Virus record (IMG/VR): IMGVR_UViG_2913177423_000001
Coordinates: 19,415 to 83,414 of that record
Length of the DNA: 64,000 nucleotides
Strand: one strand, 5' to 3'
From: a virus
Lineage: Duplodnaviria; Heunggongvirae; Uroviricota; Caudoviricetes
Shown here piece by piece: positions 1,333-28,680 of the stretch (within the stretch, counting starts at the first letter, position 1; every line of letters begins with the position of its first letter). The translations under genes and the position numbers were made by a program. A model generated the notes under the pieces. The model worked only from the letters and a program-made list of their open reading frames with translations, made no database searches and was not told the origin of the DNA.

Positions 1333-1533
1333 TTGCGTTTACTTAACGTGGCTGAACTTATCCCTGCTGGTGCTAACGTTGTTGCTCGCCGTCGGTCCTG
1401 GCAGCAACCATTGTGTGTTGAGTTGTCGAAACACAGCAATGGAACAATAGAGGCTCGCAATATTGTTACTGGTGATAAGGTTCACATTACCCCGGAAAGT
1501 ACAGGCGCTGATGATTGGGAGTTTGTACATTGA
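1333..1533 (+). CDS. minimal DUF2829 (Tad2-like) domain protein, 66 aa
   Basis: TTG start 8 nt after GGAG. The pattern ...VARRRSW...TGDK...ADDWEFV matches the DUF2829 signature (G..vaRr.W ... D.lA.DWe.v). Confidence 0.55.
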   Translation: MRLLNVAELIPAGANVVARRRSWQQPLCVELSKHSNGTIEARNIVTGDKVHITPESTGADDWEFVH

Positions 1534-1829
1534 GCAAAAAACATTATGTGAACCTGACGTTTGCTGATGACGCCGGGAGAACGCGGAGCATAACGCTCAA
1601 CACTGCCCGCAAGGTGGTAACCGCGCCGTTAATCCGTGAAGCCCTCAGGGAGCTGGATATGGGTGAGAACTCGGCCCTGTTGTCGGTTAGCTGGCTAGGG
1701 AAAATGTCAGAGAAAGAATACGTAGACGGACTTACTCCAATAACAGCTATGAGACTGCTTTCATTGTTGCAATGGGCTATCGTGCCTTTATGCATCGTGT
1801 ATTTTATCTACCAGGCAATGACACAATAA
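1530..1829 (+). CDS. hypothetical protein with C-terminal transmembrane anchor
   Basis: TTG at 1530 is preceded by GGGAG (8-nt spacing) and overlaps the upstream stop (TTGA). Hydrophobic C-terminus LLSLLQWAIVPLCIVYFIY. The track start at 1515 lacks an SD. Confidence 0.5.
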   Translation: MSKKHYVNLTFADDAGRTRSITLNTARKVVTAPLIREALRELDMGENSALLSVSWLGKMSEKEYVDGLTPITAMRLLSLLQWAIVPLCIVYFIYQAMTQ

Positions 1830-1835
1830 CCGCTC

Positions 1836-1865
1836 AAAAACCCGCCGACTAGCGGGTTTTTTGTT
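1836..1865 (+). terminator. intrinsic terminator
   Basis: AAACCCGC-cgacta-GCGGGTTTTTTG stem-loop plus T-run just after the stop at 1829. Confidence 0.8.
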
Positions 1866-1903
1866 TATCACATCTTTCGCTCTTGTTCTCATGCTAATAA
1901 AAT

Positions 1904-1920
1904 GTGTTAGAAAACTAATT
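1904..1920 (+). promoter_or_regulatory. operator-like 17-mer GTGTTAGAAAACTAATT
   Basis: Word-family member, 12 nt upstream of the 406-aa ORF. Confidence 0.55.
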
Positions 1921-1931
1921 TTGCAAAAGTA

Positions 1932-3152
1932 ATGGGAACTGCAATGAGTCAACAAACTGATACTTCTAATCTGGAAATCATCTCAGCCGCGATTGAAACG
2001 CTGCGGACACAGATCGCCCTTATTCAAAAGCGGAATCCGGGGGATGACCTGTCTAGGCGACTACATGAGAGCGTCATTGCCACTACTGATAACCTGGTCG
2101 CGGAGATCAACCAGCTACTTGAGGAAGGGACGGTTGATTACAACAAGCTGGTGGATCAGTTTGAGGAATATCAGCAAGCTGTTAATGATGGCCTGATTCG
2201 TTTTTCACAAGTCACAGGCGTATCAGCGACAGTTGAAAGCCTGGGCGATGCAGTTAATCAATTTGCCGCTAATATGCGTAGTGAGATCGGCAATCTGGAA
2301 GCGCGTCTTGAACAGGCAAATACACTGCGCAAATCTGCTGAAGCCGATTTGAGCCGTTACAAAAAAGACTATCCGCCCAGCCTGTCAAAACGTCTGGATG
2401 TTGCGGAGAAGGATAACCGCGCACTGAAAAGAGAGCGCCGGGAGCTGAAAGAGCGTTTAACAGAGCTGAATCAGCAATGTATTAAGTATCAAGGTGAAGG
2501 CGTCACTCTGCGTAAGAAGTTAGCAGCTGCGCAGAACATTATTGAAACTCTGAAACGAGAGTGCTCACAGCTTGGGCATGATCTGAATCGCGCTTGTGGC
2601 ATGGGGCAAAGACCAGAGACATTTCCGCTTATGTATGATGGGAGGGAAGCTATTGCCTATATCCATGAGTTTCCGCATGGCCTGGTCGCGGAGACTGGGC
2701 AGCGAGGAGAAGCATTACTGACGGCTAATTACCATCAGCAAATCAGAACTAGCCGCCTGCTGACTATGGATGTGATCCCATCTGTATGGGGAACGCCGCT
2801 TTACTATCGCCTCCCCGGCTTCGAAAAGGACTGGAACAACGACATAGACGAATGTCTGGCAGATAAAATAATGGCGTACCTGGAGACTGATTTCCCACGC
2901 CTGCATCGCCGGATTATGGACTCTAAGGACGCGCCGATCGATGAATTGAAAATGCGCCCAGAGACGCTGGAGGCAATCAAGCAGACGGAGTTTGACACTG
3001 TATTCAGTGTGGCCTGCATTCCAAGCTGTTTCCATGAAAGTATCCCGTTCATGCAAGGCGATCGTCGTCAGGAAATCATTGATGCTTGTCGCGTATGGGC
3101 GAACGAATGGGACAAGAAGAATGGGGGAGTAGAAGATCTTTACGGGAAATAA
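1932..3152 (+). CDS. coiled-coil protein, 406 aa, unknown function
   Basis: Long ORF; the N-terminal half is heptad-like and charged (LEARLEQANTLRKSAEADL...KRERRELKERLTELNQQ). Bracketed by operator-like sites at 1904 and 3154. Confidence 0.75.
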   Translation: MGTAMSQQTDTSNLEIISAAIETLRTQIALIQKRNPGDDLSRRLHESVIATTDNLVAEINQLLEEGTVDYNKLVDQFEEYQQAVNDGLIRFSQVTGVSATVESLGDAVNQFAANMRSEIGNLEARLEQANTLRKSAEADLSRYKKDYPPSLSKRLDVAEKDNRALKRERRELKERLTELNQQCIKYQGEGVTLRKKLAAAQNIIETLKRECSQLGHDLNRACGMGQRPETFPLMYDGREAIAYIHEFPHGLVAETGQRGEALLTANYHQQIRTSRLLTMDVIPSVWGTPLYYRLPGFEKDWNNDIDECLADKIMAYLETDFPRLHRRIMDSKDAPIDELKMRPETLEAIKQTEFDTVFSVACIPSCFHESIPFMQGDRRQEIIDACRVWANEWDKKNGGVEDLYGK

Positions 3153-3153
3153 T

Positions 3154-3170
3154 GTGTTAGAAATTTAATT
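3154..3170 (+). promoter_or_regulatory. operator-like 17-mer GTGTTAGAAATTTAATT
   Basis: Starts 2 nt after the stop at 3152; nearly identical to the site at 13374 (minus). Confidence 0.55.
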
Positions 3171-3309
3171 TCAACATACGAACATGTTGATTGTAGGTGT
3201 AACATAACATAGAATTTTCCTTGCTGGTGGAGCGTTGCCACATTTCGCTTGCTGGGCTTGATAGTCACTTATTGGTTGTTGTTCGCCCACCAGCAAATAA
3301 CAAATTAAA

Positions 3310-3326
3310 GTGTTAGAAAATTACAG
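3310..3326 (+). promoter_or_regulatory. operator-like 17-mer GTGTTAGAAAATTACAG
   Basis: Word-family member at the entry to the non-coding RNA island. A 10-bp stem, TTGCTGGTGG/CCACCAGCAA (3221-3297), lies between this site and the one at 3154. Confidence 0.5.
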
Positions 3327-3526
3327 GTATACAGGGACTCGCTTTGGCACCGAGCAAGCCAAAGTTCGGCAGGTTTAGTGCGTAAAGTGGTTTCAGAGAG
3401 AGCACTTTACGGAGTAAACGACAAGACATGTTGAGCCACGGAAGGTCTTTTTAAGATGTTCATTGATGATGGTCCGGAAGAGAGTAACGGGACTCACCGC
3501 ATCGAATCATCATCAATGCACATCCT

Positions 3527-3692
3527 CAACATTAAGGAGGCGCAGGGTTGGTTTTGTGCTCGCTTTTTTACTGACTCTGAGTCTCCTTAATGTTGCGGTA
3601 ATGCACCTATGCGGATGCGGCCTTGCATTGTGTCTTGAAAGAATGGGGTAAGGCCGGGGATATCCCCAGGGGGAGGCACCCCCGCCGCAACG
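3527..3692 (+). repeat. structured repeat unit, copy 1 (full)
   Basis: CAACATTAAGGAG...CTCCTTAATGTTG stem, CGGTAATGC tail, GGGGG-AGGCA-CCCCC hairpin, then GCCGCAACG. Confidence 0.5.
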
Positions 3693-3912
3693 AACAGCCA
3701 TAGACGGCAGTCGAGTGATGAAAACGTGAAAAGACTTTAAACCTCGTTACGGCTGGCGTGGCAAACGCGACAACCGGGATAGGACGGTGACGGGCGGAGA
3801 GAGTGCCGCATCAAGAAAGAAGCCGACTTGTGATTACTTTCTGCGGGCCTTTGAAAGTGAATCCAGCTCAGGCAGTCGGCTTCTTTCTTGTGTGAGATGT
3901 AGTAGCGTGTTT

Positions 3913-3936
3913 GCCCATCTTCGGGTGGGCTTTTTT
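3913..3936 (+). terminator. intrinsic terminator
   Basis: GCCCATC-ttcg-GGTGGGC followed by TTTTTT. Confidence 0.7.
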
Positions 3937-4119
3937 AGGGTTTTCGTCATTGTTAGCGACTTTGCGGCTGTTTATAAACTGACCATTAAAGTAAATGCAA
4001 ACGATGATCTGATGATGGTAGCGGCCTAATAAGCCTGACGCCACGGGGTATGAGTCGTCCCCCGTCAAAAAATCGACCACAGAGTGTCCCCGTCTGTGTA
4101 TTAGGGAACGGGGAGGCAT

Positions 4120-4196
4120 AACAGGCAAGGGCGCTGGTGTGATTAACCAGATGAATGAGAAGGGTCAGGTCTTTCTGGTCAGCGCCCTTACCTGTT
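4120..4196 (+). repeat. structured repeat unit, partial (stem module only)
   Basis: AACAGGCAAGGGCGCTG...CAGCGCCCTTACCTGTT, a 17-bp stem resembling the CAACAGGTAAG... stems of the other copies. Confidence 0.4.
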
Positions 4197-4397
4197 ACGT
4201 CCCTCCCGCGTAACAGCCATTGCTTGATGGTATAGGGGAAAGTTTGTTGGTTACGGGTATATCCCGTCATGCTGAAGGCGCTAATCACGCTGGAAGCCAG
4301 GGTTATGCATCCCCTGTTACCGAATTGCAGCCAGGGCGCGTTGCGCCGAAAAGCATACGGAGGTGGAAGCCCTCGCCGGAGACGTACCCGGCACAAT

Positions 4398-4474
4398 GGT
4401 GGTGTAGCTCAGTAGGATAGAGCAGCAGCCTTCTAAGCTGTCGGTCGGTGGTTCGAATCCACTCACCATCGCCA
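4398..4474 (+). tRNA. tRNA-Arg (anticodon UCU, reads AGA)
   Basis: Cloverleaf folded by hand: acceptor GGTGGTG/CACCATC, D arm GCTC/GAGC, anticodon loop CTTCTAA, T arm GGTGG-TTCGAAT-CCACT, encoded CCA. Confidence 0.9.
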
Positions 4475-4478
4475 AATT

Positions 4479-4554
4479 GCCGATTTAGCTCAGTTGGTAG
4501 AGCAGTCGCTTTGTAAGCGAATGGTCAGCGGTTCGATCCCGTTAATCGGCACCA
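4479..4554 (+). tRNA. tRNA-Thr (anticodon UGU, reads ACA)
   Basis: Acceptor GCCGATT/AATCGGC, anticodon loop TTTGTAA, T arm AGCGG-TTCGATC-CCGTT, encoded CCA; 4 nt after tRNA-Arg. Confidence 0.9.
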
Positions 4555-4557
4555 ACA

Positions 4558-4632
4558 CAACAGGTAAGGGCATTCTCCCTTATGGGGCTTGGCTTAAATG
4601 CATCGAGTGCTCTTACCGTTGTGATGAAGTGC
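4558..4632 (+). repeat. structured repeat unit, partial (stem plus tail)
   Basis: CAACAGGTAAGGGCA...TGCTCTTACCGTTG stem followed by TGATGAAGTGC; begins 4 nt after tRNA-Thr. Confidence 0.45.
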
Positions 4633-4813
4633 AGCTCTTTGAAGCAACCAGAAGATAAGCATCTGGCTTCACAACATAAACCGCAGGAACGACCAATAAA
4701 CGGTAGTCCGTATGGCGAACACCCCGTTGAGGAAGAGGCCTGGCCGGAACCGTAACCGGCACTACAACGTTGAGAGCATTGGCGTAACGGGGTCATATCC
4801 CAATCTATGAATA

Positions 4814-4900
4814 AATGTTGCGTTGCAGCGTGACAACCAGTGTTTTCAACATTGTGGTGAATGCACAGGCTGATGTGCCGCAACTACAGTAGTGCGCGCT
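4814..4900 (+). repeat. structured repeat unit, partial (stem, tail, CCGCAAC)
   Basis: AATGTTG...CAACATT stem, GTGGTGAATGC tail, GCACA-ggctga-TGTGC hairpin, then CCGCAACTAC. Confidence 0.4.
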
Positions 4901-4972
4901 TTGCGGGGCTTGCTACAACCCTGTGTCGGAGTTCAGCGCCGACCATCACAATTTATTTAGAAACTGTCATCC

Positions 4973-5386
4973 ATGAGCGCGAGAACAGTAATTATGCAGA
5001 AAGAGCAGTTTGTTATTTCTCTAGTGGTTAGCACCAGTTATCAGGTCGATAAAGTTTCGAAAGAAAGCGTACCTGAAATTGATGTTGTCGATGTGTTCGG
5101 CAATGAACTCAAAATACCACTTCGTGAATTTAATGAAATAGCAGCTCCGTTGGGCAAAATTGAAGGCCTGGAAGAATACCACAAGCGGATGATTATCGAG
5201 CGCGCCCAACTATGCCAGCGCATAAATAAGCTGGTTAGATTTATCGGAACAGATAACTTTCTCGCCATCGGCTTGGACAGTCAGTTGGAATTACAAAATC
5301 AGCTCGAAAGCATGATTGAGTATCGAAAAGCTCTTGATTCGCGGTTGATTAAATTAACCGAATATGACCCATCAGTAAGCGGTTAA
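4973..5386 (+). CDS. hypothetical protein, 137 aa, helical C-terminus
   Basis: ATG ORF with ordinary composition, embedded between RNA repeat units; no motif recognised. Confidence 0.55.
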   Translation: MSARTVIMQKEQFVISLVVSTSYQVDKVSKESVPEIDVVDVFGNELKIPLREFNEIAAPLGKIEGLEEYHKRMIIERAQLCQRINKLVRFIGTDNFLAIGLDSQLELQNQLESMIEYRKALDSRLIKLTEYDPSVSG

Positions 5387-5441
5387 TTATAAATTTGGGG
5401 CGGATGGTTAGTCCGCCGTTAACTCCATGAAACGGAGTACG

Positions 5442-5638
5442 CAACAGGTAAGAGCATTCTCCTGTAACGGGTTCATATCCCAATCTACAGGTCCACCAAG
5501 AATGCTCTTTCCGTTGCGGTGAATGCGGCTAAGCGCACGCGGAACAGTTAAAACAATCTTCCTTAATGTTTAAGTCAAACATCCCGGCGTTAATTGTTAA
5601 CTGGTTAACGTCACCTGGAGGCACCAGGCACCGCAATC
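5442..5638 (+). repeat. structured repeat unit, copy 3 (full)
   Basis: CAACAGGTAAGAGCATTCT...AGAATGCTCTTTCCGTTG stem, CGGTGAATGCGGCTAAGCGCAC tail, CCTGG-AGGCA-CCAGG hairpin, then CACCGCAATC. Confidence 0.5.
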
Positions 5639-5889
5639 TAATAAAGTTTCAAGCAATGGAGTTTTTGTTGTCAGACTACAGATATAGATGGTTGTGGAAG
5701 AATATCCTGTCCATATTCAAGTTTTTTCTTCCGCTATTTGTCTGCTTTGTCATGCTTCCTGAGCTGAAATACGCAATTTCAGACACCTTAAGCACTATCG
5801 TTACTTTTGTGTTTTATCTTTACTTTGATTACTTATTGAGCACTAAAATCTATGAATTATCCGATGAAATGCAAGGTGGCTGTAAGTGA
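5566..5889 (+). CDS. possible small membrane protein (AT-rich); weak call
   Basis: Hydrophobic segments (FKFFLPLFVCFVMLP, IVTFVFYLYF). The 5' third overlaps the conserved RNA hairpin, so a later start (ATG at about 5656) is more likely if the gene is real. Confidence 0.3.
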   Translation: MFKSNIPALIVNWLTSPGGTRHRNLIKFQAMEFLLSDYRYRWLWKNILSIFKFFLPLFVCFVMLPELKYAISDTLSTIVTFVFYLYFDYLLSTKIYELSDEMQGGCK

Positions 5890-6026
5890 TGAATTTTTGG
5901 GCGTTTGCCGATAAGAACCCTGGTTGGACATTTTTATTTCTGCTGGTGGTTGCATATGGGGTCGAGCAAGCGGCAAAAGCCTTACGCGGTTCTGGCAAAA
6001 AGCGTAAGCGGAATTGACAGTAATCT

Positions 6027-6102
6027 GGCCCCTTAGCTCAGTGGTTAGAGCTGGCGACTCATAATCGCACGGCCATCGGTTCAAATCCGGTAGGGGCCAC
6101 CA
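6027..6102 (+). tRNA. tRNA with CAU anticodon, Ile2 (ileX-like, AUA reader) rather than Met
   Basis: Acceptor GGCCCCT/AGGGGCC, D arm and anticodon stem-loop GGCGA-CTCATAA-TCGC match my memory of E. coli ileX/ileY; encoded CCA. Confidence 0.85.
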
Positions 6103-6447: not shown

Positions 6448-6558
6448 CCTTTCAATTCATCATATAGCCGCTCAGGCTGTAACCCTTAATTAATACGAAG
6501 TTTCGACATCTCTATCGGTTTAACCGAGGGATGGTCGCGCGTGTAAAAAGGAGACGTT

Positions 6559-7134
6559 ATGTTAACGGCGAACGATAACGCGTATGCAGAAGCAGATCTC
6601 ATATTGAGTGACTTCATCGGTCAGCGGGAACGCTGGACACAAAAGCGAGAGGAACTTTATGCCTCGTTAGTTCGCAAAGGTGTCAACATTGAAACCGCTC
6701 AAAGCGGCGATATGACGGTAGTCAGTGTTGGATTACATGGTGTGAGCGTGTCCGCAGCCAATCATGAGCCATACGTAGCGTTATCCGAGTCGATGGCAAG
6801 GCTAATTAAGTTTCTGAAGCAAACAGAAGCCAATAATGTTTTCATCGCCAAAAAGAACATCAATTTTTCTGCCGCCGTGTTCTGGATGATGAAGGGGCTT
6901 GACGCCCGCCGGGCATCATGGCCTAAAGGGAGCTATATGTCGATGTTCCGTGGCAGTATTGGCAGTAAAGAAAAGCTCGTCGAATTCCTGCCGGAAGAAG
7001 CATTCGATATTGTGGAAGGGTGCGATGTGATGGTTATGCCTCGCCTGGTAATGATGAATGGAGATTTACAGGCACAGACAGACTGGTTCGCCACTGGCGT
7101 GGATATTATCGCGACTGACTGGGAGGCATTCTGA
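6559..7134 (+). CDS. two-domain protein with C-terminal DUF2829 (Tad2-like) module
   Basis: AGGAG RBS. C-terminal FSAAVFWMMKGLDARRASWPKG...TDWFATGVDIIATDWEAF fits DUF2829; the N-terminal ~100 aa is unrecognised. Confidence 0.75.
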   Translation: MLTANDNAYAEADLILSDFIGQRERWTQKREELYASLVRKGVNIETAQSGDMTVVSVGLHGVSVSAANHEPYVALSESMARLIKFLKQTEANNVFIAKKNINFSAAVFWMMKGLDARRASWPKGSYMSMFRGSIGSKEKLVEFLPEEAFDIVEGCDVMVMPRLVMMNGDLQAQTDWFATGVDIIATDWEAF

Positions 7135-11959: not shown

Positions 11960-11971
11960 TATTCCTACTCG

Positions 11972-11988
11972 ATTTAGTTTTCTAACAT
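11972..11988 (-). promoter_or_regulatory. operator-like 17-mer ATGTTAGAAAACTAAAT
   Basis: 13 nt upstream of the ATG of the 345-aa minus-strand gene. Confidence 0.55.
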
Positions 11989-12060
11989 AAAATTACTATG
12001 ACAAATCTATGTCGAATAACAGGGTGAGTAAAGGATCAAGATGCGTTTTTTTATCATCAA

Positions 12061-12077
12061 ATTTAGAAAATTCTGCT
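12061..12077 (+). promoter_or_regulatory. weak operator-like word ATTTAGAAAATTCTGCT
   Basis: Shares the TTAGAAAATT core only. Confidence 0.3.
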
Positions 12078-12149
12078 TAAAAACTGCCAGGCATAACTTA
12101 AAGCCCACGCCAGCAATGCATTGCCCATCTACGCGGGAAGGAAAAAAAT

Positions 12150-12166
12150 TCCTAATTTTCTAACTT
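12150..12166 (-). promoter_or_regulatory. operator-like 17-mer AAGTTAGAAAATTAGGA overlapping the rox-like site
   Basis: Word-family member; overlaps the left arm of the recombination site by 6 nt. Confidence 0.45.
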
Positions 12167-12192
12167 TAGATAATTGGCATTATTTAAAGTTA
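12161..12192. other. rox-like recombination target (14-bp arm, 4-bp spacer, 14-bp arm)
   Basis: TAACTTTAGATAAT-TGGC-ATTATTTAAAGTTA. The arms are inverted repeats with one mismatch (G at arm position 9). Equals the reverse complement of the D6 rox site as I remember it, except for that base. Lies 150 bp upstream of the recombinase gene. Confidence 0.8.
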
Positions 12193-12201
12193 GTATATAA
12201 T
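12174..12201 (+). promoter_or_regulatory. sigma70-like promoter overlapping the rox-like site, pointing at the recombinase gene
   Basis: TTGGCA (12174-12179), 16-nt spacer, TATAAT (12196-12201). Two GATC sites follow at 12204 and 12213. Confidence 0.4.
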
Positions 12202-12344
12202 AATGATCAAACGATCAGTATTGACAGACTCAAAAAGTCATGGTTCGAATCAAGGGCTTAAATTTTAAATTCTCACGGATAACTAGCCTGTCATTTTTTG
12301 TTTTTTCGCGTAGCGACACCAATTTATAGAGGTGAAATGATTAC

Positions 12345-13373
12345 ATGAGTAAACTTATTATCTCCGGTAATCCTGGCATGTTTCTTCGTGATATTGGTGC
12401 TGAGTACCAGGAAGCCGCCAAAAATTTCATGCAGTTCCTTAATGACCAGGGCGCTTACTCACCTAATACACTGCGCGATCTGCGCCTGGTCTTTCACTCC
12501 TGGGCGCGTTGGTGCCACGCTCGTGGTCTTGCGTGGTTTCCGATCTCCCCGGAAGCTGCCCGCGAATACCTGCTTCAACTGCATGATGCGGATCTGGCTT
12601 CAACCACCATTGAAAAGCATTACGCCATGCTCAATATGCTGTTGTCACAATGCGGACTGCCGCAACTCTCTGATGACAAAAGCGTATCCCTGGCGATGCG
12701 GCGCATCCGGCGCGAAGCTGCAACCGAAAAAGGCGAACGCACAGGCCAGGCTATACCGTTGCGGTGGAATGATCTGAAATGGCTCGACGTGTTGCTGTCC
12801 CGTTCCGAGCGGCTGGTGGACCTGCGCAACCGGGCGTTTCTCTTCGTGGCATACAATACCCTGTTGCGTATGGCTGAAATGTCCCGCGTGCGTGTTCGCG
12901 ATCTGGAACAGACTGGTGACACTGTAACGCTTCACGTATCCCACACCAAAACCATCACGACCGCCGCCGGACTTGATAAGGTGCTCTCCCTCCGGACAAC
13001 TGCGGTTCTCAATGACTGGCTGGACGAGTCCGGACTACGTGATCACCCGGATGCGATACTTTTCCCGCCAGTACACCGGAGCAACAAAGCGCGGATCACC
13101 ACCACGCCACTAACCGCGCCCGCGATGGAGAAGATTTTCAGTGACGCCTGGGCGCTGCTGGGTAAGAGTGATGCCACCCCAAATAAAGGCCGTTACCGGA
13201 CGTGGACAGGCCACAGTGCGCGTGTTGGTGCCGCCATAGATATGGCTGAAAAACAGGTGTCTTTGGTTGAAATTATGCAGGAAGGTACATGGAAGAAGCC
13301 CGAAACACTGATGCGTTATCTTCGTCGTGGCGGTGTGACAGCAGGTGCCAATAGCCGCCTCATGGATTCATGA
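12345..13373 (+). CDS. dre: Cre-family tyrosine recombinase, Dre-like
   Basis: Colinear with Cre over its full length (AFLFVAYNTLLRMAE, GHSARVGAA, W...LMRYLRR with the catalytic Tyr). The sequence matches my memory of D6 Dre closely. Confidence 0.9.
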   Translation: MSKLIISGNPGMFLRDIGAEYQEAAKNFMQFLNDQGAYSPNTLRDLRLVFHSWARWCHARGLAWFPISPEAAREYLLQLHDADLASTTIEKHYAMLNMLLSQCGLPQLSDDKSVSLAMRRIRREAATEKGERTGQAIPLRWNDLKWLDVLLSRSERLVDLRNRAFLFVAYNTLLRMAEMSRVRVRDLEQTGDTVTLHVSHTKTITTAAGLDKVLSLRTTAVLNDWLDESGLRDHPDAILFPPVHRSNKARITTTPLTAPAMEKIFSDAWALLGKSDATPNKGRYRTWTGHSARVGAAIDMAEKQVSLVEIMQEGTWKKPETLMRYLRRGGVTAGANSRLMDS

Positions 13374-14770: not shown

Positions 14771-15457
14771 ATGAAGGAAAAGCTTTTGAAGACGCTCCCT
14801 GAGTACAAATACCACGGAACCATTCGCGCATCGAAAATCAAAAAGATCAAGCCTATTGGCGGATTAATTCCTCTCTGGGGTGATATTGAGGTCACCGAAC
14901 CAAAAGGGGTAACGATTCGTGTTGATTTAATGTTTTTACAAAAATACCGACCACAAATTGGCGGGTATTTGGTCGTTCATGAGGACGGATATTTGTCCTA
15001 TTTATCAGAAAAAACATTTAAAGAGGGCTTTAGTCGAATTGATGACATCTCAGAAAATGAAACAACAGTCATCATTGCCGATGACAAAGGCATGATGATT
15101 AATCTTGCCGGGATCGTATCTATTTATGCTGATGACATCACTAACCAACAAGAAGAAATCGACCTTGAGGCAGCCGACTTTTCTGACGCGCTGATGTGGC
15201 TGAAGGATGGCAAGAAAGTTGCTCGACGCGGGTGGAACGGCGAAAACCAATTCTGCTGGCTGGTTCCTGACAAACAGGGCGCTTCAAGACTAACCCCTAT
15301 AAAACATGCCGCAAGCGGAGAGCTTGAAATCAATTTCGGCTCGCCCCTTGCTCCTTATGGAGAGCATTTCACTTTGAAAAATGCACAAGGTGTCTTTCTT
15401 CCGTGGCTACCTTCTGTCGGCGACCTGCTGGCATGTGACTGGTTTGTAGTGGAGTGA
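14771..15457 (+). CDS. two-domain protein with C-terminal DUF2829 (Tad2-like) module
   Basis: C-terminal FSDALMWLKDGKKVARRGWNGENQF...PWLPSVGDLLACDWFVVE is a textbook DUF2829 pattern; the N-terminal ~135 aa is unrecognised. Confidence 0.8.
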   Translation: MKEKLLKTLPEYKYHGTIRASKIKKIKPIGGLIPLWGDIEVTEPKGVTIRVDLMFLQKYRPQIGGYLVVHEDGYLSYLSEKTFKEGFSRIDDISENETTVIIADDKGMMINLAGIVSIYADDITNQQEEIDLEAADFSDALMWLKDGKKVARRGWNGENQFCWLVPDKQGASRLTPIKHAASGELEINFGSPLAPYGEHFTLKNAQGVFLPWLPSVGDLLACDWFVVE

Positions 15458-15463: not shown

Positions 15464-16237
15464 ATGGAAAGCACCAAAACAACTCAATACCGCTTGCGTA
15501 ATGGCCTGCTGGTGGCTGTTAACGCCGACATGTCACTGCCGTTTGACACGATAGAACGCACTATCATGACGTATCTCGGCTTTAATGAAGAGCTGAATGA
15601 AGAGCATGGCGTAGCTATATGGAGTGATGCAGACAGCGGCGTTCGTCGTTACATCACTGCCAGAGGCAAAGACTACTCTCTGGAAGAACTGTTTACCCTT
15701 GCGCAGTCTTTCGAATGTGTAGCATTGGACCTGTTTAATGATCCTGCTATAGCGCAACGACTTATCCGCGAGCTTGGGCTGTCGGTTACCCCAATTATCT
15801 TTAAAAATGGCAGCCTGACTGGCACATGGCGCGTAGAGCGCATCTCAAACTACCTTCCATATAACCGCCAGTTAAACGGGGTAATTTCCGGCGTCAATCA
15901 GCCTGTAGCGTGTGAAAACGCAAACCTGGTTGTCGCTGTTTTGGCAACTGCATGTCGCGTTATTGGTTTGACTAAACAGGCATTTATCCATTTTCCCAAT
16001 GGTGCAGAAGGTGGCGTAGAAATTATCGCGTGTGATTTCGAATTTACCTGGATGCTTCGTGAATATCTGGACCGAACAGTGTTCCGCGCCGAAGAACTGG
16101 ATCTGTATATCACGTCAACGATTCCTGATGATGTGCGAGCTGAAGCAATCGCTACAGCCAGAGCGAAATGCCGTGCGTCGATTGCAGAACAAGCCAAAGA
16201 AGAAGTTACAGTTAAGGAAGTGGCAGATGGTAACTAA
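15464..16237 (+). CDS. hypothetical protein, 257 aa
   Basis: ATG ORF in the operon; its 3' end overlaps the next gene's ATG at 16227. Confidence 0.65.
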   Translation: MESTKTTQYRLRNGLLVAVNADMSLPFDTIERTIMTYLGFNEELNEEHGVAIWSDADSGVRRYITARGKDYSLEELFTLAQSFECVALDLFNDPAIAQRLIRELGLSVTPIIFKNGSLTGTWRVERISNYLPYNRQLNGVISGVNQPVACENANLVVAVLATACRVIGLTKQAFIHFPNGAEGGVEIIACDFEFTWMLREYLDRTVFRAEELDLYITSTIPDDVRAEAIATARAKCRASIAEQAKEEVTVKEVADGN

Positions 16238-17321
16238 GAGCAATATTTATAAAGATCCGCGCTGGCTGTCGCTGGTGGAGAAATATAAAGACAATTGGGT
16301 ACTGGCAGCAAAAGAATTGTTTGATATTGATTTAAGCCACCAGCAACAACAAATTGTTGAAGCTATACAGCCCAATAATGCAAAAGCTACTGTCACCACT
16401 CCGCATGGGATCGGACGACCGCAAGTGCTTGCTGTTATTAGTACCCTTTATACGATTATGTATCCTGATTCCCGGACAGTAATTGTTTATCCAAAATCAA
16501 ATGCTTGCAAAAGAGGAATTGTTGCATATGTGTGGCAATGTTGGGAGGCATTGCTGAAAAAACAACCTTTTATCATTGAGTATTTTAAGGTCGGTGATAG
16601 CGGTCTGATGTTCAATGAATTTTGGGGAATGTGCTTTTGTAACTACCGCCTTAACTATGAAGATAGCATTGCAGGTCACTACGCCGACCATCTTTTATTC
16701 ATTATTGTGGATTCCGCACATATCAGCGATCGGGCATACAGTATTGTGTGGGCAAGCATGACTAGTGGTGATTCACGCATATTGCTCACTTCAATTCCGT
16801 CACCAGAGGAAATAGGCTTTTTTTATGATTCACATCATGGACGTGCTTTAGCTGAAGATAATCCGAGTGGTGTCTATAAAGCCATTAAGCTGAGTGCTGA
16901 GGATTCACCATTTATTACCCAAGAATATCTTGATCATTTTGCCGAAAGGTATGGCGGGCGAAATAGTGATGACTATCGTCGTATGATTCTTGGTGAGTTC
17001 CCTGGTATTAGGGAGGCTGTTCTTGAATCAGATATGCCGAAGACAATGCGCTTTTCGATGCCTGATGGTAGTGAATGGACAATGCCATTACGAGTGATAG
17101 CCCGGCATCATGCGCAGCACCACGCCAAAAAACATAGCGTCACGACATTAGAATGGTTGAAATCGCACACTATTCCACTCTTCACTGCAGATCACAATGC
17201 TATCGTTGAGTGGGCCAAAACAATTCCGTGGGAGCATGTCGCTGAATACGCTCACATGCTAAAACCGCCGAAAGACAGACACGAAATTAGCTGGCTGACA
17301 GCCGAAAAAATCATTGAATGA
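16227..17321 (+). CDS. paralogue of the PacB ATPase domain with degenerate Walker motifs and an unrelated C-terminus
   Basis: Colinear with PacB residues ~10-290 (DPRW, QQQxI, FYDSHH, DNPxG, SPFxT, YGGRxS, LGxFP). Walker A is TPHGIGRPQ (PacB: SGHGTGKSS) and Walker B is LLFIIVDSAH (PacB: LLLILDEASG). The last ~90 aa are His-rich and unrelated to the nuclease half. Confidence 0.75.
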   Translation: MVTKSNIYKDPRWLSLVEKYKDNWVLAAKELFDIDLSHQQQQIVEAIQPNNAKATVTTPHGIGRPQVLAVISTLYTIMYPDSRTVIVYPKSNACKRGIVAYVWQCWEALLKKQPFIIEYFKVGDSGLMFNEFWGMCFCNYRLNYEDSIAGHYADHLLFIIVDSAHISDRAYSIVWASMTSGDSRILLTSIPSPEEIGFFYDSHHGRALAEDNPSGVYKAIKLSAEDSPFITQEYLDHFAERYGGRNSDDYRRMILGEFPGIREAVLESDMPKTMRFSMPDGSEWTMPLRVIARHHAQHHAKKHSVTTLEWLKSHTIPLFTADHNAIVEWAKTIPWEHVAEYAHMLKPPKDRHEISWLTAEKIIE

Positions 17322-23947: not shown

Positions 23948-24270
23948 GCTGATTCCCTTTGCTCTTCTTGGATAATGTTGTTGCAATCTTTCACGCACTC
24001 GTCACAGATGAAAACGTTGTCCCCGGCAATTAACTTTTTGACGGTGTGCTGGGATTTATTGCAGAAGCTGCAATAAAGCGTTGGACTGGCTGATACGGAT
24101 GGTGCTCCGGATGTCAGCCGCGCGATGTCGTCCTTGCGGCGCAACATCACACGGCAGCACTCAGCAAGTTTCTCCGGGGAGATTCCTTCCTCCGTGGCGA
24201 GTGCCTCCAGTCGTTCAAGCACGTGGAAGGCTTTTTCCTGGGTAAATGCAGAATGTGATATGGCCATCAT
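23944..24270 (-). CDS. small protein carrying a ClpX-type C4 zinc-binding domain
   Basis: C-terminal [39 protein letters not shown] is nearly superimposable on the E. coli ClpX N-domain ([39 protein letters not shown], from memory). Confidence 0.8.
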
Positions 24271-24968
24271 CTCTCCCCTTCAAAGTTCGGGCGCAGGCAG
24301 GATTGTCCTTTACGAAGCAGGGCTGCGAACCTGTCAGCCGCATCCGCGCAAGCAGAAGCAACGGAATCAAAAAATGGATCATCTCCGGTATCGCGCATCG
24401 TCAAAGCGAATGCCTCCAATCCCTGAGCCTGTATTTCTACAAGATAAGCCTCAGATATAGTGCTTTTCGCTTCACCTAACTCGTTATGAGCTATGTTCGC
24501 TACACATGCGATGTCTATATCTGGATGATTAATTGGGAGATGGCTAAGAATTGCCTCAAGTGCTGCTTTTTTGTTTTGGCATTCCGCCACCAGCGCCCCG
24601 CTATTGCTTTCCAGCTCTGCAATACACTTTTTAGCGGCCTCCAGCTCAACACGCAGCTTCTCAAGCGTTAGGGCCATCTCCACTTTCTCGTCCAGCAGTT
24701 CAATCACATCAGGATCGCTACCATCAACTACTGATATGCGCGAATTTTTGTAATGCTCGTCAGCATAAGTTCGTCCAGTTTTGAAGCGTCCGTCAGCCTC
24801 CATGCCGGAACAGGCATAAACAACATGTGATCCAGATATGCGTTCCATTGACATTTCCTCGCCACAAACAGAGCATTTAGGCGCTGGTTTCGGTGAATAA
24901 CGTTCACGTAACGGATAGTAAAGCTCGATCTCCGCCAGTTGCTCTGGCGTTAAACCTTCAGACTTCAT
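24267..24968 (-). CDS. Ead/Ea22-like protein with N-terminal zinc ribbon (paralogue C)
   Basis: CSVCGEE...YACSG Cys cluster plus the shared coiled-coil segment. Confidence 0.65.
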
Positions 24969-25275
24969 GCACTCTCCTTTCGAAATAAACGTACTGATTA
25001 ATCATGCCCAGGGGCATTTCGAGTTTTTCCGCGATCTCACGGCGGGGAACGCCACACTGATGAAGCTGCCGCGCCAGCTCTATATCGCTCTGCCGATATT
25101 TGGCTGACTGGTGAAAGTCACCTTTCAGAATCATTCTGATCCCCAGTTCCCGCGCTTTAGTCCTGACAGCATCTCCGGTACGCCCGATCAGCCTCCCGAT
25201 ACTCTCGACTGTCATAGTTCCGGCGCACTGGCGGAGTATCATGATTTCTGCCCTTCTCCATCCCCGCCATCTCAC
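24958..25275 (-). CDS. small DNA-binding-like protein (two HTH-like segments)
   Basis: GTGA overlap with the upstream gene; contains MTVESIGRLIGRTGDAVRTKARELGI and RREIAEKLEMPLGMINQY. Confidence 0.55.
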   Translation of the reverse strand: MRWRGWRRAEIMILRQCAGTMTVESIGRLIGRTGDAVRTKARELGIRMILKGDFHQSAKYRQSDIELARQLHQCGVPRREIAEKLEMPLGMINQYVYFERRVHEV

Positions 25276-25895
25276 GCTGACATCCTCTGAGACATAAACT
25301 CCACAAAACGAACTGCATCTTCAGAAACAACGCCGCATGACTTCAGATAATTCATTGCGTCATTAGGTAGCGGATTAGTTGGTTCGGCATTTGCCAGGGG
25401 TTGAGATAAACGCGTGATTAATTTGACCATTCTCCGCTGCCGGAGGTTGTATCCTTCAGCTAAAGACAGGTAACTGGAAAGGGTATTGCTTAAGCGGGCG
25501 CGAAGCTGATCCGTGCCGTGACATTCAATAGCAACATCACGTAACGCATCGACCAGTTCACGGTAAATATGCGCAGCCATTCTGCAATCTGAGTCAGACG
25601 GCGCTTCATAAATTACCGTCAGCTCCAGTTTTTCAGCCAGGGCGTGTTCTGCTCGTGCTCCTGCGGACGCTTCCCAGCCATTAAGCAGATAGATAGCATC
25701 AGCAGAACGCACCATTGCCAGGCAAATATCCATGTATTCGCTCTGACAAAGGCCACCAGGTAATACCGCCGGATTAAGAACGATATGCCCTTCAGCCATC
25801 AGCTCGCTCGCTTTCGCATTAAACGCCGCGCGGTTGTAATCTGGATAACCAGTCATCGGACCCGCGATGTAAATTTTCAAAACACGTTTCACCAT
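25272..25895 (-). CDS. DUF4406 (nucleoside 2-deoxyribosyltransferase-like) protein with C-terminal extension
   Basis: KIYIAGPMTGYPDYNRAAF...NPA...AIYLLNGWEASAGARAEHALA fits DUF4406. The ATG at 25895 overlaps the upstream stop (TGATG). Confidence 0.7.
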   Translation of the reverse strand: MVKRVLKIYIAGPMTGYPDYNRAAFNAKASELMAEGHIVLNPAVLPGGLCQSEYMDICLAMVRSADAIYLLNGWEASAGARAEHALAEKLELTVIYEAPSDSDCRMAAHIYRELVDALRDVAIECHGTDQLRARLSNTLSSYLSLAEGYNLRQRRMVKLITRLSQPLANAEPTNPLPNDAMNYLKSCGVVSEDAVRFVEFMSQRMSA

Positions 25896-26050
25896 CAAAA
25901 TTTCCCCAGCATCGTGACGCAAAACATAAGCACTGCAAAAAGCTCAATACCAAGCTCAAGTAGCGCCAACGCGCCGAAAAACAGCACATAAAACAGGCCG
26001 ATCTCATTCACAGGTGGCTGGTGGATCGCACTTAAGGCTATAAGCATCAT
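25895..26050 (-). CDS. 51-aa membrane peptide, first gene of the leftward operon (not in the ORF track)
   Basis: GGAGGAC then ATG. Translation is MMLIALSAIHQPPVNEIGLFYVLFFGALALLELGIELFAVLMFCVTMLGKF. Its stop overlaps the next ATG. Confidence 0.5.
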   Translation of the reverse strand: MMLIALSAIHQPPVNEIGLFYVLFFGALALLELGIELFAVLMFCVTMLGKF

Positions 26051-26089
26051 GTCCTCCAAACAGTAAACAGCGACTGATATTAATGTTTT

Positions 26090-26121
26090 GTGTTAGAAAA
26101 TCAATTTTGAATATCTAACAA
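26090..26121. promoter_or_regulatory. overlapping inverted pair of operator-like 17-mers in the divergent control region
   Basis: GTGTTAGAAAATCAATT (plus) and TTGTTAGATATTCAAAA (minus). Located between the leftward operon (start 26050) and ref (start 26169). Confidence 0.6.
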
Positions 26122-26168
26122 ATATGATCAATCATAAAAAAATCGCTGATAAGTAAGAGGCAGCCAAC

Positions 26169-26747
26169 ATGCAGAGACAGAGTTATTGGGAGAAACAGAG
26201 ACAAAAAGCCATGCAAAAACTGGCTGATCCGGAATGGCGGGAAGAGCAAAGGGCAAAACGTCTTCAGCAGGCTCAACGCCAGCAGCAACGCGCAAGGGAA
26301 AAAGCCGCATCGCCTGAATATCGTCAAAAGAAACTTGAAAAAGTGAGGCAAAGTGAACAGCGCAGAAGAGAGAGGGCGGCGTCAGCCCTCCCCAAAAAAA
26401 CGCGCCCGTCACGCGGATTAAAAGGGAGATCACTCACAGCAGAAGAGCGCCGGATACAGGAGGCTATAGGCAAACTCCCCTGTATTGCCTGCCATCTTCA
26501 CGGGAAGCATAGCCCTGTCGTATCTCTCCACCACATATTTGGCAGAACGGCTAAAGATGCCCATAAATACGTTCTCCCTTTGTGTAAATGGCACCACCAG
26601 CACGCAGCGCCAGCAGAGATCCGCGAACAATATCCCTGGTTGGTTCCTGTTCATGCTGATGGAAAAATAGGCGGGAAAGCAGATTTTATACGGCACAATG
26701 CCGAAGAGATGACGCTCTATCAGACGGTGCAAGAAATGGTGAATTAA
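26169..26747 (+). CDS. ref: Ref-like RecA-dependent HNH endonuclease
   Basis: Charged N-terminus, then SRGLKGRSLTAEERRI, LPCIACH, VSLHHI, LPLCKWHHQHAAPAEIREQYPWLVPVHADG; matches P1 Ref as I remember it. Confidence 0.85.
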   Translation: MQRQSYWEKQRQKAMQKLADPEWREEQRAKRLQQAQRQQQRAREKAASPEYRQKKLEKVRQSEQRRRERAASALPKKTRPSRGLKGRSLTAEERRIQEAIGKLPCIACHLHGKHSPVVSLHHIFGRTAKDAHKYVLPLCKWHHQHAAPAEIREQYPWLVPVHADGKIGGKADFIRHNAEEMTLYQTVQEMVN

Positions 26748-26758
26748 TTTTCTAACAT
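26742..26758 (-). promoter_or_regulatory. operator-like 17-mer ATGTTAGAAAATTAATT
   Basis: Overlaps the ref stop codon and sits just upstream of a possible promoter (TTGAGT...TGTACATT) for the immI-like region. Confidence 0.55.
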
Positions 26759-26875
26759 TTTATGTTGAGTTTGAAATTTACTGATTGTACATTTTGATTA
26801 GATTGGTTCACCGCTCGACGCAACGAGACAAATCCTCAAGGATTTCGTATGATTGCCAATGTCATAGTTATGGCA

Positions 26876-26942
26876 GCGCAATACAGGTGGCTAAAAGCCC
26901 CCGTTGACTCACGGTGTTCCAACCTGTATTGCGCCGCCACCA
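26876..26942 (+). ncRNA. candidate C4-like (tRNA-like) antisense regulatory RNA
   Basis: Perfect 13-bp closing stem GCGCAATACAGGT/ACCTGTATTGCGC enclosing two small hairpins (GGC-taaaa-GCC and CCGT-tgactc-ACGG), followed by CGCCACCA. Position (operator, RNA, small ORFs, antirepressor-like gene) mirrors P1 immI. Confidence 0.35.
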
Positions 26943-26986
26943 GACCGTGGAACAGTCTGTGACGGCTTCGAAAGCAAGGAGTCACT

Positions 26987-27082
26987 ATGAACAATTACAA
27001 ACTTTTCCCATCACTCACCGTCTACTCACGCAATAACCTGCGTTCTTTGCTCCCATCAAAACTGGAGGGAGTATCAAAATGA
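26987..27082 (+). CDS. 31-aa leader ORF (weak call)
   Basis: AAGGAG RBS; its stop overlaps the next ATG (ATGA). Confidence 0.3.
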   Translation: MNNYKLFPSLTVYSRNNLRSLLPSKLEGVSK

Positions 27083-27246
27083 CCGTTCGCTACCTGAATT
27101 ATCAAATCCAGAACATCACTGGCGGTTGCTATGACTGGTTTGTCACTCTTGGTAAAGAAGTGATCACCGGGAAGCTGGATGAAGTGAAAGCTAAAGCAAT
27201 GGCCTACGCCTGCAAGCAAGCCCAAAAGAAGAAAAGAAAAGCATAA
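27079..27246 (+). CDS. 55-aa basic-tailed protein (not in the ORF track)
   Basis: GGAGGGAG RBS 7 nt upstream. Translation is MTVRYLNYQIQNITGGCYDWFVTLGKEVITGKLDEVKAKAMAYACKQAQKKKRKA. Confidence 0.5.
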   Translation: MTVRYLNYQIQNITGGCYDWFVTLGKEVITGKLDEVKAKAMAYACKQAQKKKRKA

Positions 27247-27352
27247 GAAAACACACTGTTGCGCCCTGGCATTATCGTGGGGTATATTTCTACGGCACCT
27301 TAGAAAAACGGGTGCCGGGATTGGTCTCCCGGTAATGTCAAAGGCGACACAT

Positions 27353-27374
27353 AGACGCCGCAAGCGTCTTTTTT
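27353..27374 (+). terminator. intrinsic terminator inside the immI-like leader
   Basis: AGACGC-cgcaa-GCGTCT followed by TTTTT. Confidence 0.7.
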
Positions 27375-27538
27375 GTTGTCGGCGCACTCGCACACCTATC
27401 AATGGTGGGCTGTGTGGTGGCTTCCTCGGAAGCGCCGGTTCCCTTTGACGCCGGTAAGACCAACTCCACACAGTCCACCGCCAGTAAGATTGGTCTCTTC
27501 GGCGGTGGTATCGTTCACTGTCAAAGGAGGCTGCCAAT

Positions 27539-27754
27539 ATGGCTACTACCCCTACCCCAACTCATTCTGAATTTATCTGGCGTTTCTATTCCTGCCAAAA
27601 ACACCTGTATATCTGCGTAATGGCTGCTACCGAAGCAGAAGCTCGCTCATACCTTCCTGATACTCCCTGCATTTTTGCTGCCCGCTTCACTCTTGATGCG
27701 ATGGAGATCCTCAATTACTGGAATCTGCCGATGAACTGCGTGGAGGTGCACTGA
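27539..27754 (+). CDS. 71-aa protein in the position of P1 icd
   Basis: AAGGAGG RBS; its stop overlaps the ATG of the antirepressor-like gene (TGATG). Assigned by position only. Confidence 0.5.
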   Translation: MATTPTPTHSEFIWRFYSCQKHLYICVMAATEAEARSYLPDTPCIFAARFTLDAMEILNYWNLPMNCVEVH

Positions 27755-28680
27755 TGAATCTGTCCATCTCTCAAAAAGCGACAATGACCAGCATTGAGAT
27801 CGCGGAGCTGGTAGGTAAGCGTCCTGATAACGTTAAACGCACCATTGAACACCTAGCGGAACGGGGCGTAATATCTTTTCCTCAAATTGAGGAAAAGCCC
27901 ACCGCAGGGCGCCCGGCGAGCTATTACGTCTTCGAAGGCGAGCAAGGCAAGCGCGACAGCATTATTGTCGTCGCACAGCTTTCTCCTGAATTTACCGCCC
28001 GGCTGGTGGACCGCTGGCGCGAACTGGAGAATGCCAGGGGACCGTTAAAAACAAAGGCCGAAATTCTGGCTGAAATGGCGCAAATGCATCTTGAGCATGA
28101 ACGCAGGATCAACGCCGTAAATGCCCAGGTAGCCGAAGTTTCGGCACAAGTGTCCAGGGTCGCTGAAACCGTCGAGCAAATAAAGAAAGGCAATATGCCG
28201 GAAGGTTACATTGGCTACCGCCAGCTGGCGGCGAAATGTGGCTTGACTGAAGCCAAATGTCGCAACCTGGTCAACGCTTACCGTATCCCCACCGATACGC
28301 ATGAGTTTTTAACGCCCGATGGTTTGCTTGCCCGACGCTCCATTGTGGCCCTGGCCCCCTTCCGGAAAGCCTTTAAGCAGGTTATGTCGGAGGCCGAACC
28401 ACGTAATAAACGCTGGTATCATCCAAAAATGGGCCTCTTTCAGGCAATCCACCATCCTTTACCGAAAATCCCAAAAGATAATCTGTCACTGCATACAGCC
28501 AGAGAGAAGATCAGAAGTGGATATGCAACGGTATGCCGTCGTGCCTCATGGTCTGAAGGTGTATGGGTATGGCCCGAAGGCGGATCAAGGAAGCACTGGC
28601 GCACTATCCGAGATGGTAAAATTCATGCTATTGATTTAGCGCCAGAGGATATGGTTGCTATGGACTGGATTGTTAGTTAA
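27754..28680 (+). CDS. Rha-family antirepressor-like protein fused to a C-terminal DUF2829-like module
   Basis: N-terminal MTSIEIAELVGKRPDNVKRTIEHL fits Phage_pRha. C-terminal ...CRRASWSEGVWVWPEG...APEDMVAMDWIVS fits DUF2829. Confidence 0.7.
   Translation: MNLSISQKATMTSIEIAELVGKRPDNVKRTIEHLAERGVISFPQIEEKPTAGRPASYYVFEGEQGKRDSIIVVAQLSPEFTARLVDRWRELENARGPLKTKAEILAEMAQMHLEHERRINAVNAQVAEVSAQVSRVAETVEQIKKGNMPEGYIGYRQLAAKCGLTEAKCRNLVNAYRIPTDTHEFLTPDGLLARRSIVALAPFRKAFKQVMSEAEPRNKRWYHPKMGLFQAIHHPLPKIPKDNLSLHTAREKIRSGYATVCRRASWSEGVWVWPEGGSRKHWRTIRDGKIHAIDLAPEDMVAMDWIVS

Follow-up and report, generated by a model that had tools for sequence, protein, structure and literature searches.

The window analyzed here, a stretch of 64,000 nucleotides, is assigned to a D6-like (P1-family) phage-plasmid of E. 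coli, with ~88% identity to phage D6 and ~92% identity to E. coli phage-plasmids. It contains four ORFs that share a bipartite motif, three of them with distinguishable domains:

1333 to 1533, plus strand: copy 1, a stand-alone 66-aa mini Tad2-like protein, homolog of D6 orf11
6559 to 7134, plus strand: copy 2, 191 aa, homolog of D6 orf6
6862 to 7131 (aa 102 to 190), plus strand: divergent Tad2-like domain of copy 2, after an unassigned N-terminal domain of ~100 aa
7134 to 7526, plus strand: 130-aa ORF, homolog of D6 orf5 (phrog_7004; D6 annotation)
14771 to 15457, plus strand: copy 3, 228 aa, downstream of dre-orf-orf-dut
aa ~19 to 86 of copy 3, plus strand: Dec-like OB-type N-terminal domain (profile match), followed by a beta-rich linker and then the Tad2 domain
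15176 to 15454 (aa 136 to 227), plus strand: canonical Tad2 domain of copy 3 (PF11195 and PDB matches)
27754 to 28680, plus strand: copy 4, a 308-aa Rha/Ant-type anti-repressor, homolog of D6 orf82
28483 to 28677, plus strand: last 65 aa of copy 4, a predicted mini module of the Tad2 fold

A regular-expression search of the 959 six-frame ORFs of the window (G..R..W followed by [AS].DW, ending at most 4 residues from the stop) matches only these four, at exactly the coordinates given in the initial annotation, and the numbers of matches expected from shuffled ORFs are 0 for a strict and 0.015 for a loose form of the pattern. The pN/pS values against relatives range from 0.11 to 0.30 across all four copies, and this purifying selection indicates that they are real genes. 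Our own Tad2 HMM and a mini-family HMM reveal no further copy in the window, and a weak Tad2-HMM match at 41119 to 41415 (E = 0.17) was dismissed as an improbable low-complexity frame. Three copies are indeed fused to different N-terminal domains (unassigned in copy 2, Dec-like OB-type in copy 3, and Rha/Ant in copy 4), of which those of copies 2 and 3 have no Pfam family. Scanned with PADLOC and NCBIfam, the four proteins and those encoded next to them show nothing relevant except for Icd.

All four copies had been placed in DUF2829, the Tad2 family, an assignment borne out by PF11195 (Tad2-like; gathering threshold, 25 bits) for copies 3 and 2 (74.4 and 37.7 bits) but not for copies 1 and 4. 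The characterized Tad2/DUF2829 sponges (SPO1 gp34.65, HgmTad2 [AcrIIA7], SptTad2, and ModTad2; PF11195) are stand-alone proteins of ~90 to 105 aa, unlike three of the four modules here, which are C-terminal domains of larger proteins. Tad2 forms a homotetramer whose pockets lie between protomers. Ligand-pocket residues are W25/N26/W73/S76/D79 in SPO1 Tad2 and W21/N22/W87/S90/D93 in HgmTad2, and sequence alignment to SPO1 Tad2 (W25, N26, W73, S76, T78, and D79) places five of six in copy 3, but only two in the copy 4 tail and one in copy 1. The R..W / A.DW motif is probably mainly a fold signature, because the reported ligand contacts exclude it apart from its Trp.

Copy 3 is a genuine Tad2-family domain by homology, and its gcADPR/ADPR-type pocket is essentially intact in sequence. 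It scores 111 bits with our Tad2 HMM, its PDB matches include ModTad2 (E = 3.8e-12; 38% identity) and Tad2 8v3e (5e-12), as well as SptTad2, SPO1 gp34.65, and AcrIIA7, and its pTB423 homolog carries the RefSeq name 'DUF2829 domain-containing protein'. The pocket motifs GWNG and PWLPSVGD supply W, N, W, S, G, and D, with Gly at the position of SPO1 Tad2 T78. Copy 3 is a probable sponge; by homology, it would most likely form a Tad2-like assembly that sequesters TIR-derived (Thoeris) signals, and its long β2-β3 insertion, present as three distinct alleles among close relatives, could permit capture of other cyclic nucleotides. The N-terminal domain, which might alter how copy 3 assembles, has a profile that matches residues 25 to 90 of the phage L Dec OB-fold (PDB 6e3c; E = 3e-4), sharing the segment GGYL...G.L.Y....AFE..Y, a weak likeness at the level of sequence profiles that is confined to one region.

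Copy 2 has a full-length, divergent domain with a PF11195 E value of 3e-9, 27 bits with our Tad2 HMM, and a weak PDB match (SptTad2; E = 0.12). In the sequence alignment its gcADPR pocket reads W, P, W, T, V, and D, so that both Trp residues and the Asp are kept. The motifs SWPKG and DWFATGVD are unchanged in every intact copy among 27 related loci, the sole exception (L174) having a frameshift across the first motif. Unlike in characterized Tad2, the pocket Asn is Pro in all of the intact relatives and the S/T pair is T/V, and pN/pS is 0.11. Copy 2 is a possible sponge, and would probably be a binder whose specificity for gcADPR is changed or lost. Its stop overlaps the start of the 130-aa ORF, with lpa and pacAB further downstream. 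The supplementary tables of a 2025 sponge survey, which list tested homologs, contain none of three peptide motifs taken from copies 2 and 3.

Copy 1 is flanked by a VRR-NUC (pmgM-like) gene on one side and a pmgR-like gene on the other. It and the copy 4 tail depart from characterized Tad2 in being only ~65 aa, ~25 residues shorter than any of them, and below all sequence-family thresholds: there are no PF11195 matches even at an E value of 10, no NCBIfam Tad2-type matches, and our Tad2 HMM, even with its filters disabled, gives 2.9 bits for copy 4 and no match for copy 1. The two are reciprocal best tblastn matches within the window, and their families align with an hhalign probability of 86.8%, such that sequence comparison groups them in one narrow, hitherto unrecognized ~65-aa mini family. 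Word-indexed and exhaustive protein searches return very shallow families for both copies. Among 1.84 billion representative proteins the mini family has only nine matches, all of them lacking a recorded Pfam domain; their contigs reach ~110 kb, the largest being mostly 85 to 110 kb. The family is narrow and is known here only from phage-plasmid-sized contigs.

Several comparisons connect this family with Tad2. The hhalign probability between mini and Tad2 profiles is 39 to 67%, the merged mini profile gives 27.8 against the Tad2 profile with a null of 10.2 ± 2.4, and the mini HMM ranks copy 2 (E = 0.003) directly behind the two mini copies among its matches in the window, although a sequence search of PDB with the mini profile did not find Tad2 proteins. 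AlphaFold models were built from 16 to 17 sequences, each alignment mixing both mini subfamilies, and that of the copy 4 tail has the Tad2 fold, with an N-terminal helix on a small antiparallel sheet and a C-terminal strand; for copy 1 the link to Tad2 is weak. In the alignments and the hhalign register, the pocket positions read W, S, I, A, E, and D in the copy 4 tail and W, Q, V, T, E, and S in copy 1, and neither module has the β2-β3 insertion. The mini modules would be Tad2-fold barrels that keep R..W / A.DW but no longer have the insertion or most of the residues that contact the ligand, a clade missed by current family models.

Copy 4 lies in an immunity operon preceded by two predicted RNAs:

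27295 to 27374, plus strand: isrK-like sRNA, ahead of the immunity operon (61 bits with Rfam RF01394, whose gathering score is 50)
27398 to 27485, plus strand: C4 antisense RNA (73.7 bits with Rfam RF01695, whose gathering score is 45)
27539 to 27754, plus strand: Icd-like 71-aa ORF (NCBIfam phage_ICD_like; 50.2 bits, cut-off 25)

C4 antisense RNA regulates the P1 immI-type operons, which are expressed early. As in P1 immI (c4 antisense RNA, icd, and ant1/ant2), the C4 RNA is upstream and the Icd-like ORF (homologous to D6 orf83, annotated as Icd-like) is translationally coupled to the next gene, its stop overlapping the copy 4 ATG (27754) by one base. Copy 4 matches Phage_pRha (30.6 bits; cut-off, 29.9), HTH_24, and phrog_63 'anti-repressor Ant' (E = 4e-64), and is annotated as an anti-repressor in D6, which together identify it as the predicted anti-repressor of a C4 RNA-icd-ant operon, ending in a mini module. 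Unlike in P1 immI, the anti-repressor is Rha-type and has a Tad2-fold tail, and among 50,697 phage records (tblastn; E ≤ 0.01) the tail is found in D6 only, and not in P1. Neither the P1 C1-operator consensus (0 matches at ≤3 mismatches) nor a P1 late-promoter-like pattern (5 matches versus 7 expected) is informative on expression timing in the window.

The module also occurs as a separate gene. In pTB423, the order is c4-a1b1 with C4 RNA, icd, a 235-aa Rha protein (73% identity to residues 1 to 236 of copy 4), and a 66-aa mini ORF (41.5% identity to the copy 4 tail), which has a 4-nt overlap with the Rha gene, indicating translational coupling. This split form is present in ~110 of the 122 matching plasmids, and most of these ~110 have a second matching place that we take to be the putative fused form. 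In contrast to P1 immI, D6-like plasmids are predicted to carry two paralogous C4-controlled operons, with the module fused in one and split in the other.

The mini modules would form a new, minimal clade of the Tad2 fold with a tie to anti-repressors, and the module would work together with the anti-repressor, most likely as an Ant target-recognition or assembly domain and not a gcADPR sponge. The initial annotation had offered either a panel of sponges or a module reused for regulation; the first fits copy 3 (canonical, pocket kept) and possibly copy 2 (Asn to Pro), but not copies 1 and 4, which lack the β2-β3 insertion and most gcADPR-contacting residues, while the second fits copy 4 by its operon context (C4 RNA-icd-ant, with a coupled ORF in the paralogous operon). 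The joint reading, with copy 3 most likely a sponge, copy 2 an altered binder, and the mini module an Ant partner, with activities predicted from sequence, has roughly an even chance of being right. The link to anti-repressors, seen with the module fused as well as split, offers a way to ask whether a sponge fold entered the regulation of immunity switches or, in the other direction, whether small binding barrels of this kind gave rise to sponges. P1 Coi, a 69-aa C1 repressor inactivator, targets the immunity repressor as a free-standing protein about as long as a mini module; it was dropped as a relative of these modules, having no sequence similarity, there is no coi-like ORF upstream of c1 in the window, and a functional analogy would be speculation.

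It is unlikely that all four copies (five per element including the split one) are working sponges, each for a different immune messenger. Tad2 homologs together inhibit type I, II, and IV Thoeris, CBASS, and Pycsar via two different pockets, and no other known phage sponge family has so wide a functional range; every copy is under purifying selection, and early immI-type expression as in P1 would suit counter-defense. Stand-alone mini proteins also occur in unrelated contexts distant from Ant genes (copy 1, and P0018 near ParM genes), which favors an autonomous function over an obligate Ant-partner role. However, the mini modules lack the β2-β3 insertion, which forms the second pocket, and four to five of the six gcADPR-contacting positions (equivalents of W73, S76, T78, and N26), the copy 4 module is covalently joined to a DNA-binding or anti-repressor protein, and the copy 1 and 4 modules have no Pfam match.

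It is quite improbable that copy 1, or with still lower odds the copy 4 tail, is a non-Tad2, generic SH3-like small barrel with DUF2829-like terminal motifs arising by convergence; the copy 1 model fits a DtxR SH3-like domain at least as well as it fits Tad2. That the Rha/Ant-linked module senses a nucleotide by binding it, or represents a new clade of sponges for some signal, is similarly doubtful; ligand binding by the copy 4 C-terminal family is possible because the Trp at the first pocket position is kept, the Asp is invariant, and the place of the second Trp is taken by a hydrophobic residue. Its narrower form, in which the Ant module is a small-molecule sensor gating the anti-repressor so that a host or immune nucleotide signal leads to prophage induction, is very unlikely: the Tad2 fold, these retained residues, and the fused and split association with Rha/Ant in two C4-controlled operons speak for it, but most ligand contacts are not conserved, no sequence feature requires a ligand, and the literature offers no precedent, a search finding no paper that ties DUF2829 to anti-repressors or phage-plasmids. 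If true, the phage-plasmid would read host immune or second-messenger signaling into its lysis-lysogeny switch.

An active copy 3 would arm D6- and P1-like phage-plasmids, frequent carriers of resistance genes in Enterobacteria, against signaling-based immunity. P1 isaA was considered as an IS-disrupted homolog of copy 3, wrongly, as IsaA and the SJ46-type gene share the N-terminal leader only, and the position after ssb is a site of variable cargo.

The initial annotation of this window described four DUF2829 (PF11195, Tad2-like) modules and proposed that they are either a panel of sponges or a ligand-sensing module reused for regulation. All four open reading frames (ORFs) are present at exactly the coordinates claimed for them: copy 1 at 1333-1533 (66 aa), copy 2 at 6559-7134 (191 aa), copy 3 at 14771-15457 (228 aa), and copy 4 at 27754-28680 (308 aa). 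Searching 959 six-frame ORFs with a regular expression for the two-part motif (G..R..W, followed by [AS].DW no more than four residues from the stop codon) recovers only these four, with 0 to 0.015 matches per window in shuffled ORFs, and no fifth copy is picked up in the window by the Tad2 HMM or by the mini-family HMM described below. All four copies have pN/pS values of 0.11-0.30 relative to phage D6 or other relatives, and are therefore genes under purifying selection. The observation of four related modules is confirmed in part, as copies 2 and 3 pass the family threshold, the C-terminal 65 aa of copy 4 (28483-28677; the copy 4 tail) share the fold, and membership of copy 1 is probable. 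By megablast, the region belongs to the D6 group of P1-like phage-plasmids, with ∼88% identity to Escherichia phage D6 and ∼92% identity to ∼90-kb non-mobilizable Escherichia coli plasmids such as pTB423.

The PF11195 model, with a cut-off of 25 bits, bears out the assignment of copies 3 and 2 (74.4 and 37.7 bits, respectively) but not that of copies 1 and 4, which give no match even at E≤10. A custom Tad2 HMM, built from 63 diverse viral homologues and run with all filters off, scores copy 3 at 111 bits, copy 2 at 27 bits, and copy 4 at 2.9 bits, with no match to copy 1. Copy 3 also matches the solved structures of ModTad2, Tad2 (8v3e), SptTad2, SPO1 gp34.65, and AcrIIA7/HgmTad2 (E values of 4e-12 to 4e-6), the best value for copy 2 is just 0.12, and the pTB423 homologue of copy 3 is named 'DUF2829 domain-containing protein' in RefSeq. 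Copy 3 can be regarded as an ordinary addition to the Tad2 family, its N-terminal partner being unusual, and copy 2 is a divergent member.

Copy 1 and the copy 4 tail are mutual best non-self tblastn matches in the window, and their sub-families match over the full length by hhalign (probability 86.8%, P 4e-6). With the two short modules as queries, phmmer run exhaustively against 1.84 billion representative proteins returns only nine, namely stand-alone relatives of copy 1 (66-76 aa) and of the copy 4 tail (52-96 aa), a single Rha/Ant protein of 313 aa, and a repetitive protein that is unrelated; profile searching adds a few further members to this mini family. None of the members found has a Pfam domain on record, the clade is covered by no Pfam, NCBIfam, or PADLOC model, and neither it nor its anti-repressor link was found in the literature searched. 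The source contigs are up to ∼110 kb long, the largest being mostly 85-110 kb, the size of phage-plasmids. The merged mini profile has a score of 27.8 when compared with the Tad2 profile, against a null of 10.2 ± 2.4 from 100 column permutations, none of which attains that score; the values for the copy 4 and copy 1 families are 23.6 (attained by 0/100) and 18.4 (attained by 1/100), with probabilities of 67%, 39%, and 7% for the merged, copy 4, and copy 1 profiles, respectively. The best match of the mini HMM in the window, after both mini copies, is copy 2 (E 0.003), and the match falls on a segment that copy 2 has in common with the copy 4 tail (ARRASWPKG and CRRASWSEG, respectively). The predicted structure of the copy 4 tail, with an input alignment of mini-family sequences only, is confident (pLDDT 92.4), with a helix followed by strands, and this model shows a Tad2 fold. 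Among predicted viral structures no match to copy 1 reaches an E value of 0.001; a DUF2829 protein from Pectobacterium phage CBB, 66 aa in length, ranks first (E 9e-3, probability 0.99), and two more Tad2-like entries appear lower in the list. Copy 1 is probably of the same fold lineage as the Tad2 modules.

The gcADPR pocket of SPO1 Tad2 contains W25, N26, W73, S76, T78, and D79, with W21, N22, G23, W87, S90, T92, and D93 as the equivalents in HgmTad2. The corresponding residues of the four copies, placed by sequence alignment, are as follows.

Residues at the six SPO1 Tad2 pocket positions
Copy 3: W, N, W, S, G, D (five of six identical)
Copy 2: W, P, W, T, V, D (three of six identical)
Copy 4 tail: W, S, I, A, E, D (two of six identical)
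Copy 1: W, Q, V, T, E, S (one of six identical)

In the motif used in the initial annotation (an Arg three residues before a Trp, and a terminal A.DW), the Trp is the sole reported ligand contact, and we take the rest to be fold-determining. The mini modules lack the beta2-beta3 insertion, which in HgmTad2, SptTad2, and MoTad2 forms the second pocket, where cyclic di- or mononucleotides bind. Tad2 homologues sequester 3'cADPR, His-ADPR, N7-cADPR, cyclic dinucleotides, and cUMP/cCMP. A gcADPR sponge seems unlikely for copies 1 and 4, a sponge role is possible for copy 2, and one for copy 3 would be reasonable. The copy 4 family still has the Trp and the Asp, and its second-Trp position is occupied by a hydrophobic residue; a pocket of different specificity is therefore possible.

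The proposed reuse of a Tad2-fold module for regulation has contextual backing from copy 4, which is preceded by three features.

27295-27374, + strand: isrK-like sRNA (Rfam), directly 5' of the C4 RNA on the same strand and ahead of icd-ant
27398-27485, + strand: C4 antisense RNA (Rfam), just upstream of icd-copy 4
27539-27754: Icd-like 71-aa ORF (NCBIfam, 50 bits), with a stop codon overlapping the copy 4 ATG

Copy 4 contains a Rha domain (30.6 bits, barely over the cut-off of 29.9), its whole length matches phrog_63 'anti-repressor Ant', and the D6 homologues of the 71-aa ORF and copy 4 are annotated as Icd-like and Ant; the locus is a module of the P1 immI type. In plasmid pTB423, another immI-like module lies upstream of darB, outside the window (positions 2017-3398 of locus L181, NZ_CP034790.1 27500-32000). 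It is organized as c4-a1b1 and C4 RNAs, icd, a gene for a 235-aa Rha protein (73% identity to copy 4 residues 1-236), and a separate 66-aa mini ORF (41.5% identity to the copy 4 tail) that overlaps the Rha gene by 4 nt. The Rha and mini parts are thus fused in one of these paralogous operons and split in the other, and divergence has been much faster in the mini part than in the Rha part; together, these observations suggest that the two parts are functionally linked, with specificity set by the mini module. The split version is present at ≥80% identity in ∼110 of 122 matching D6-like plasmids, and most of these records have two matching places, which we read as the split and fused forms; if so, D6-like elements probably hold five Tad2-fold modules typically. 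Stand-alone mini proteins elsewhere, namely copy 1 in the pmg operon and P0018 near the ParM genes of another phage-plasmid, favour a role that is at least partly autonomous.

Copy 3 lies downstream of dre-orf-orf-dut, and its relatives in viral contigs, many of them phage-plasmid-sized, have mosaic N-terminal domains. Close relatives (loci L003-L067) have three alternative beta2-beta3 insertions (in the region equivalent to window 15260-15370) and several N-terminal alleles, and in one allele (L056-L058) the pocket motif RGWNGEN is replaced by REWKGEK (GWNG to EWKG); variation of this kind is expected of arms-race genes. The N-terminal domain of copy 3 (aa ∼10-90, window 14798-15040) has a weak profile match (E 3e-4) to the OB-fold domain of Dec, the capsid decoration protein of phage L (PDB 6e3c), and is followed by a beta-rich linker; fusion of a capsid-decoration-like domain to a sponge domain would be odd. 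P1-like phages have a variable cargo site downstream of ssb, and in one IMG/VR contig (L039) this slot holds a Dec-like+Tad2 gene. Such a gene is cut off by IS26 in RCS47 (L179 2815-3448), and in P1 (L180 2570-3532) the same N-terminal leader is followed by an unrelated IsaA body adjoining IS1.

Copy 2 is translationally coupled to a 130-aa ORF upstream of lpa, and its pocket pattern is the same in every intact copy across 27 related loci. In the viral contig L174 (1501-2073), copy 2 is frameshifted, with in-frame stops within the Tad2-like domain, and the gene is therefore dispensable in at least one lineage.

The gene order of the region matches that of D6: the darB end-ulx-pmgM-orf11-pmgR-pmgS, tRNAs, tciAB, orf6-orf5-lpa-pacAB, c1, dre-dut, and then ref, icd-ant, and mat. 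In P1, coi, imcB, and imcA precede c1, whereas no coi-like ORF is present between c1 and dre in this D6-like window (11960-12345), where the c1 strand has only ORFs of ≤33 aa; a P1-type C1 operator is found nowhere in the window. Three tRNA genes lie between pmgS and copy 2.

4398-4471, + strand: tRNA gene
4479-4551, + strand: tRNA gene
6027-6099, + strand: tRNA gene

The equivalent part of D6 contains genes for tRNA-Asn, tRNA-Thr, and a putative tRNA-Ser. The 363-aa ORF at 16230-17321, two genes downstream of copy 3, belongs to phrog_5902 and weakly resembles terminase large subunits (phrog_2, E 2.6e-9); pacA and pacB are located elsewhere.
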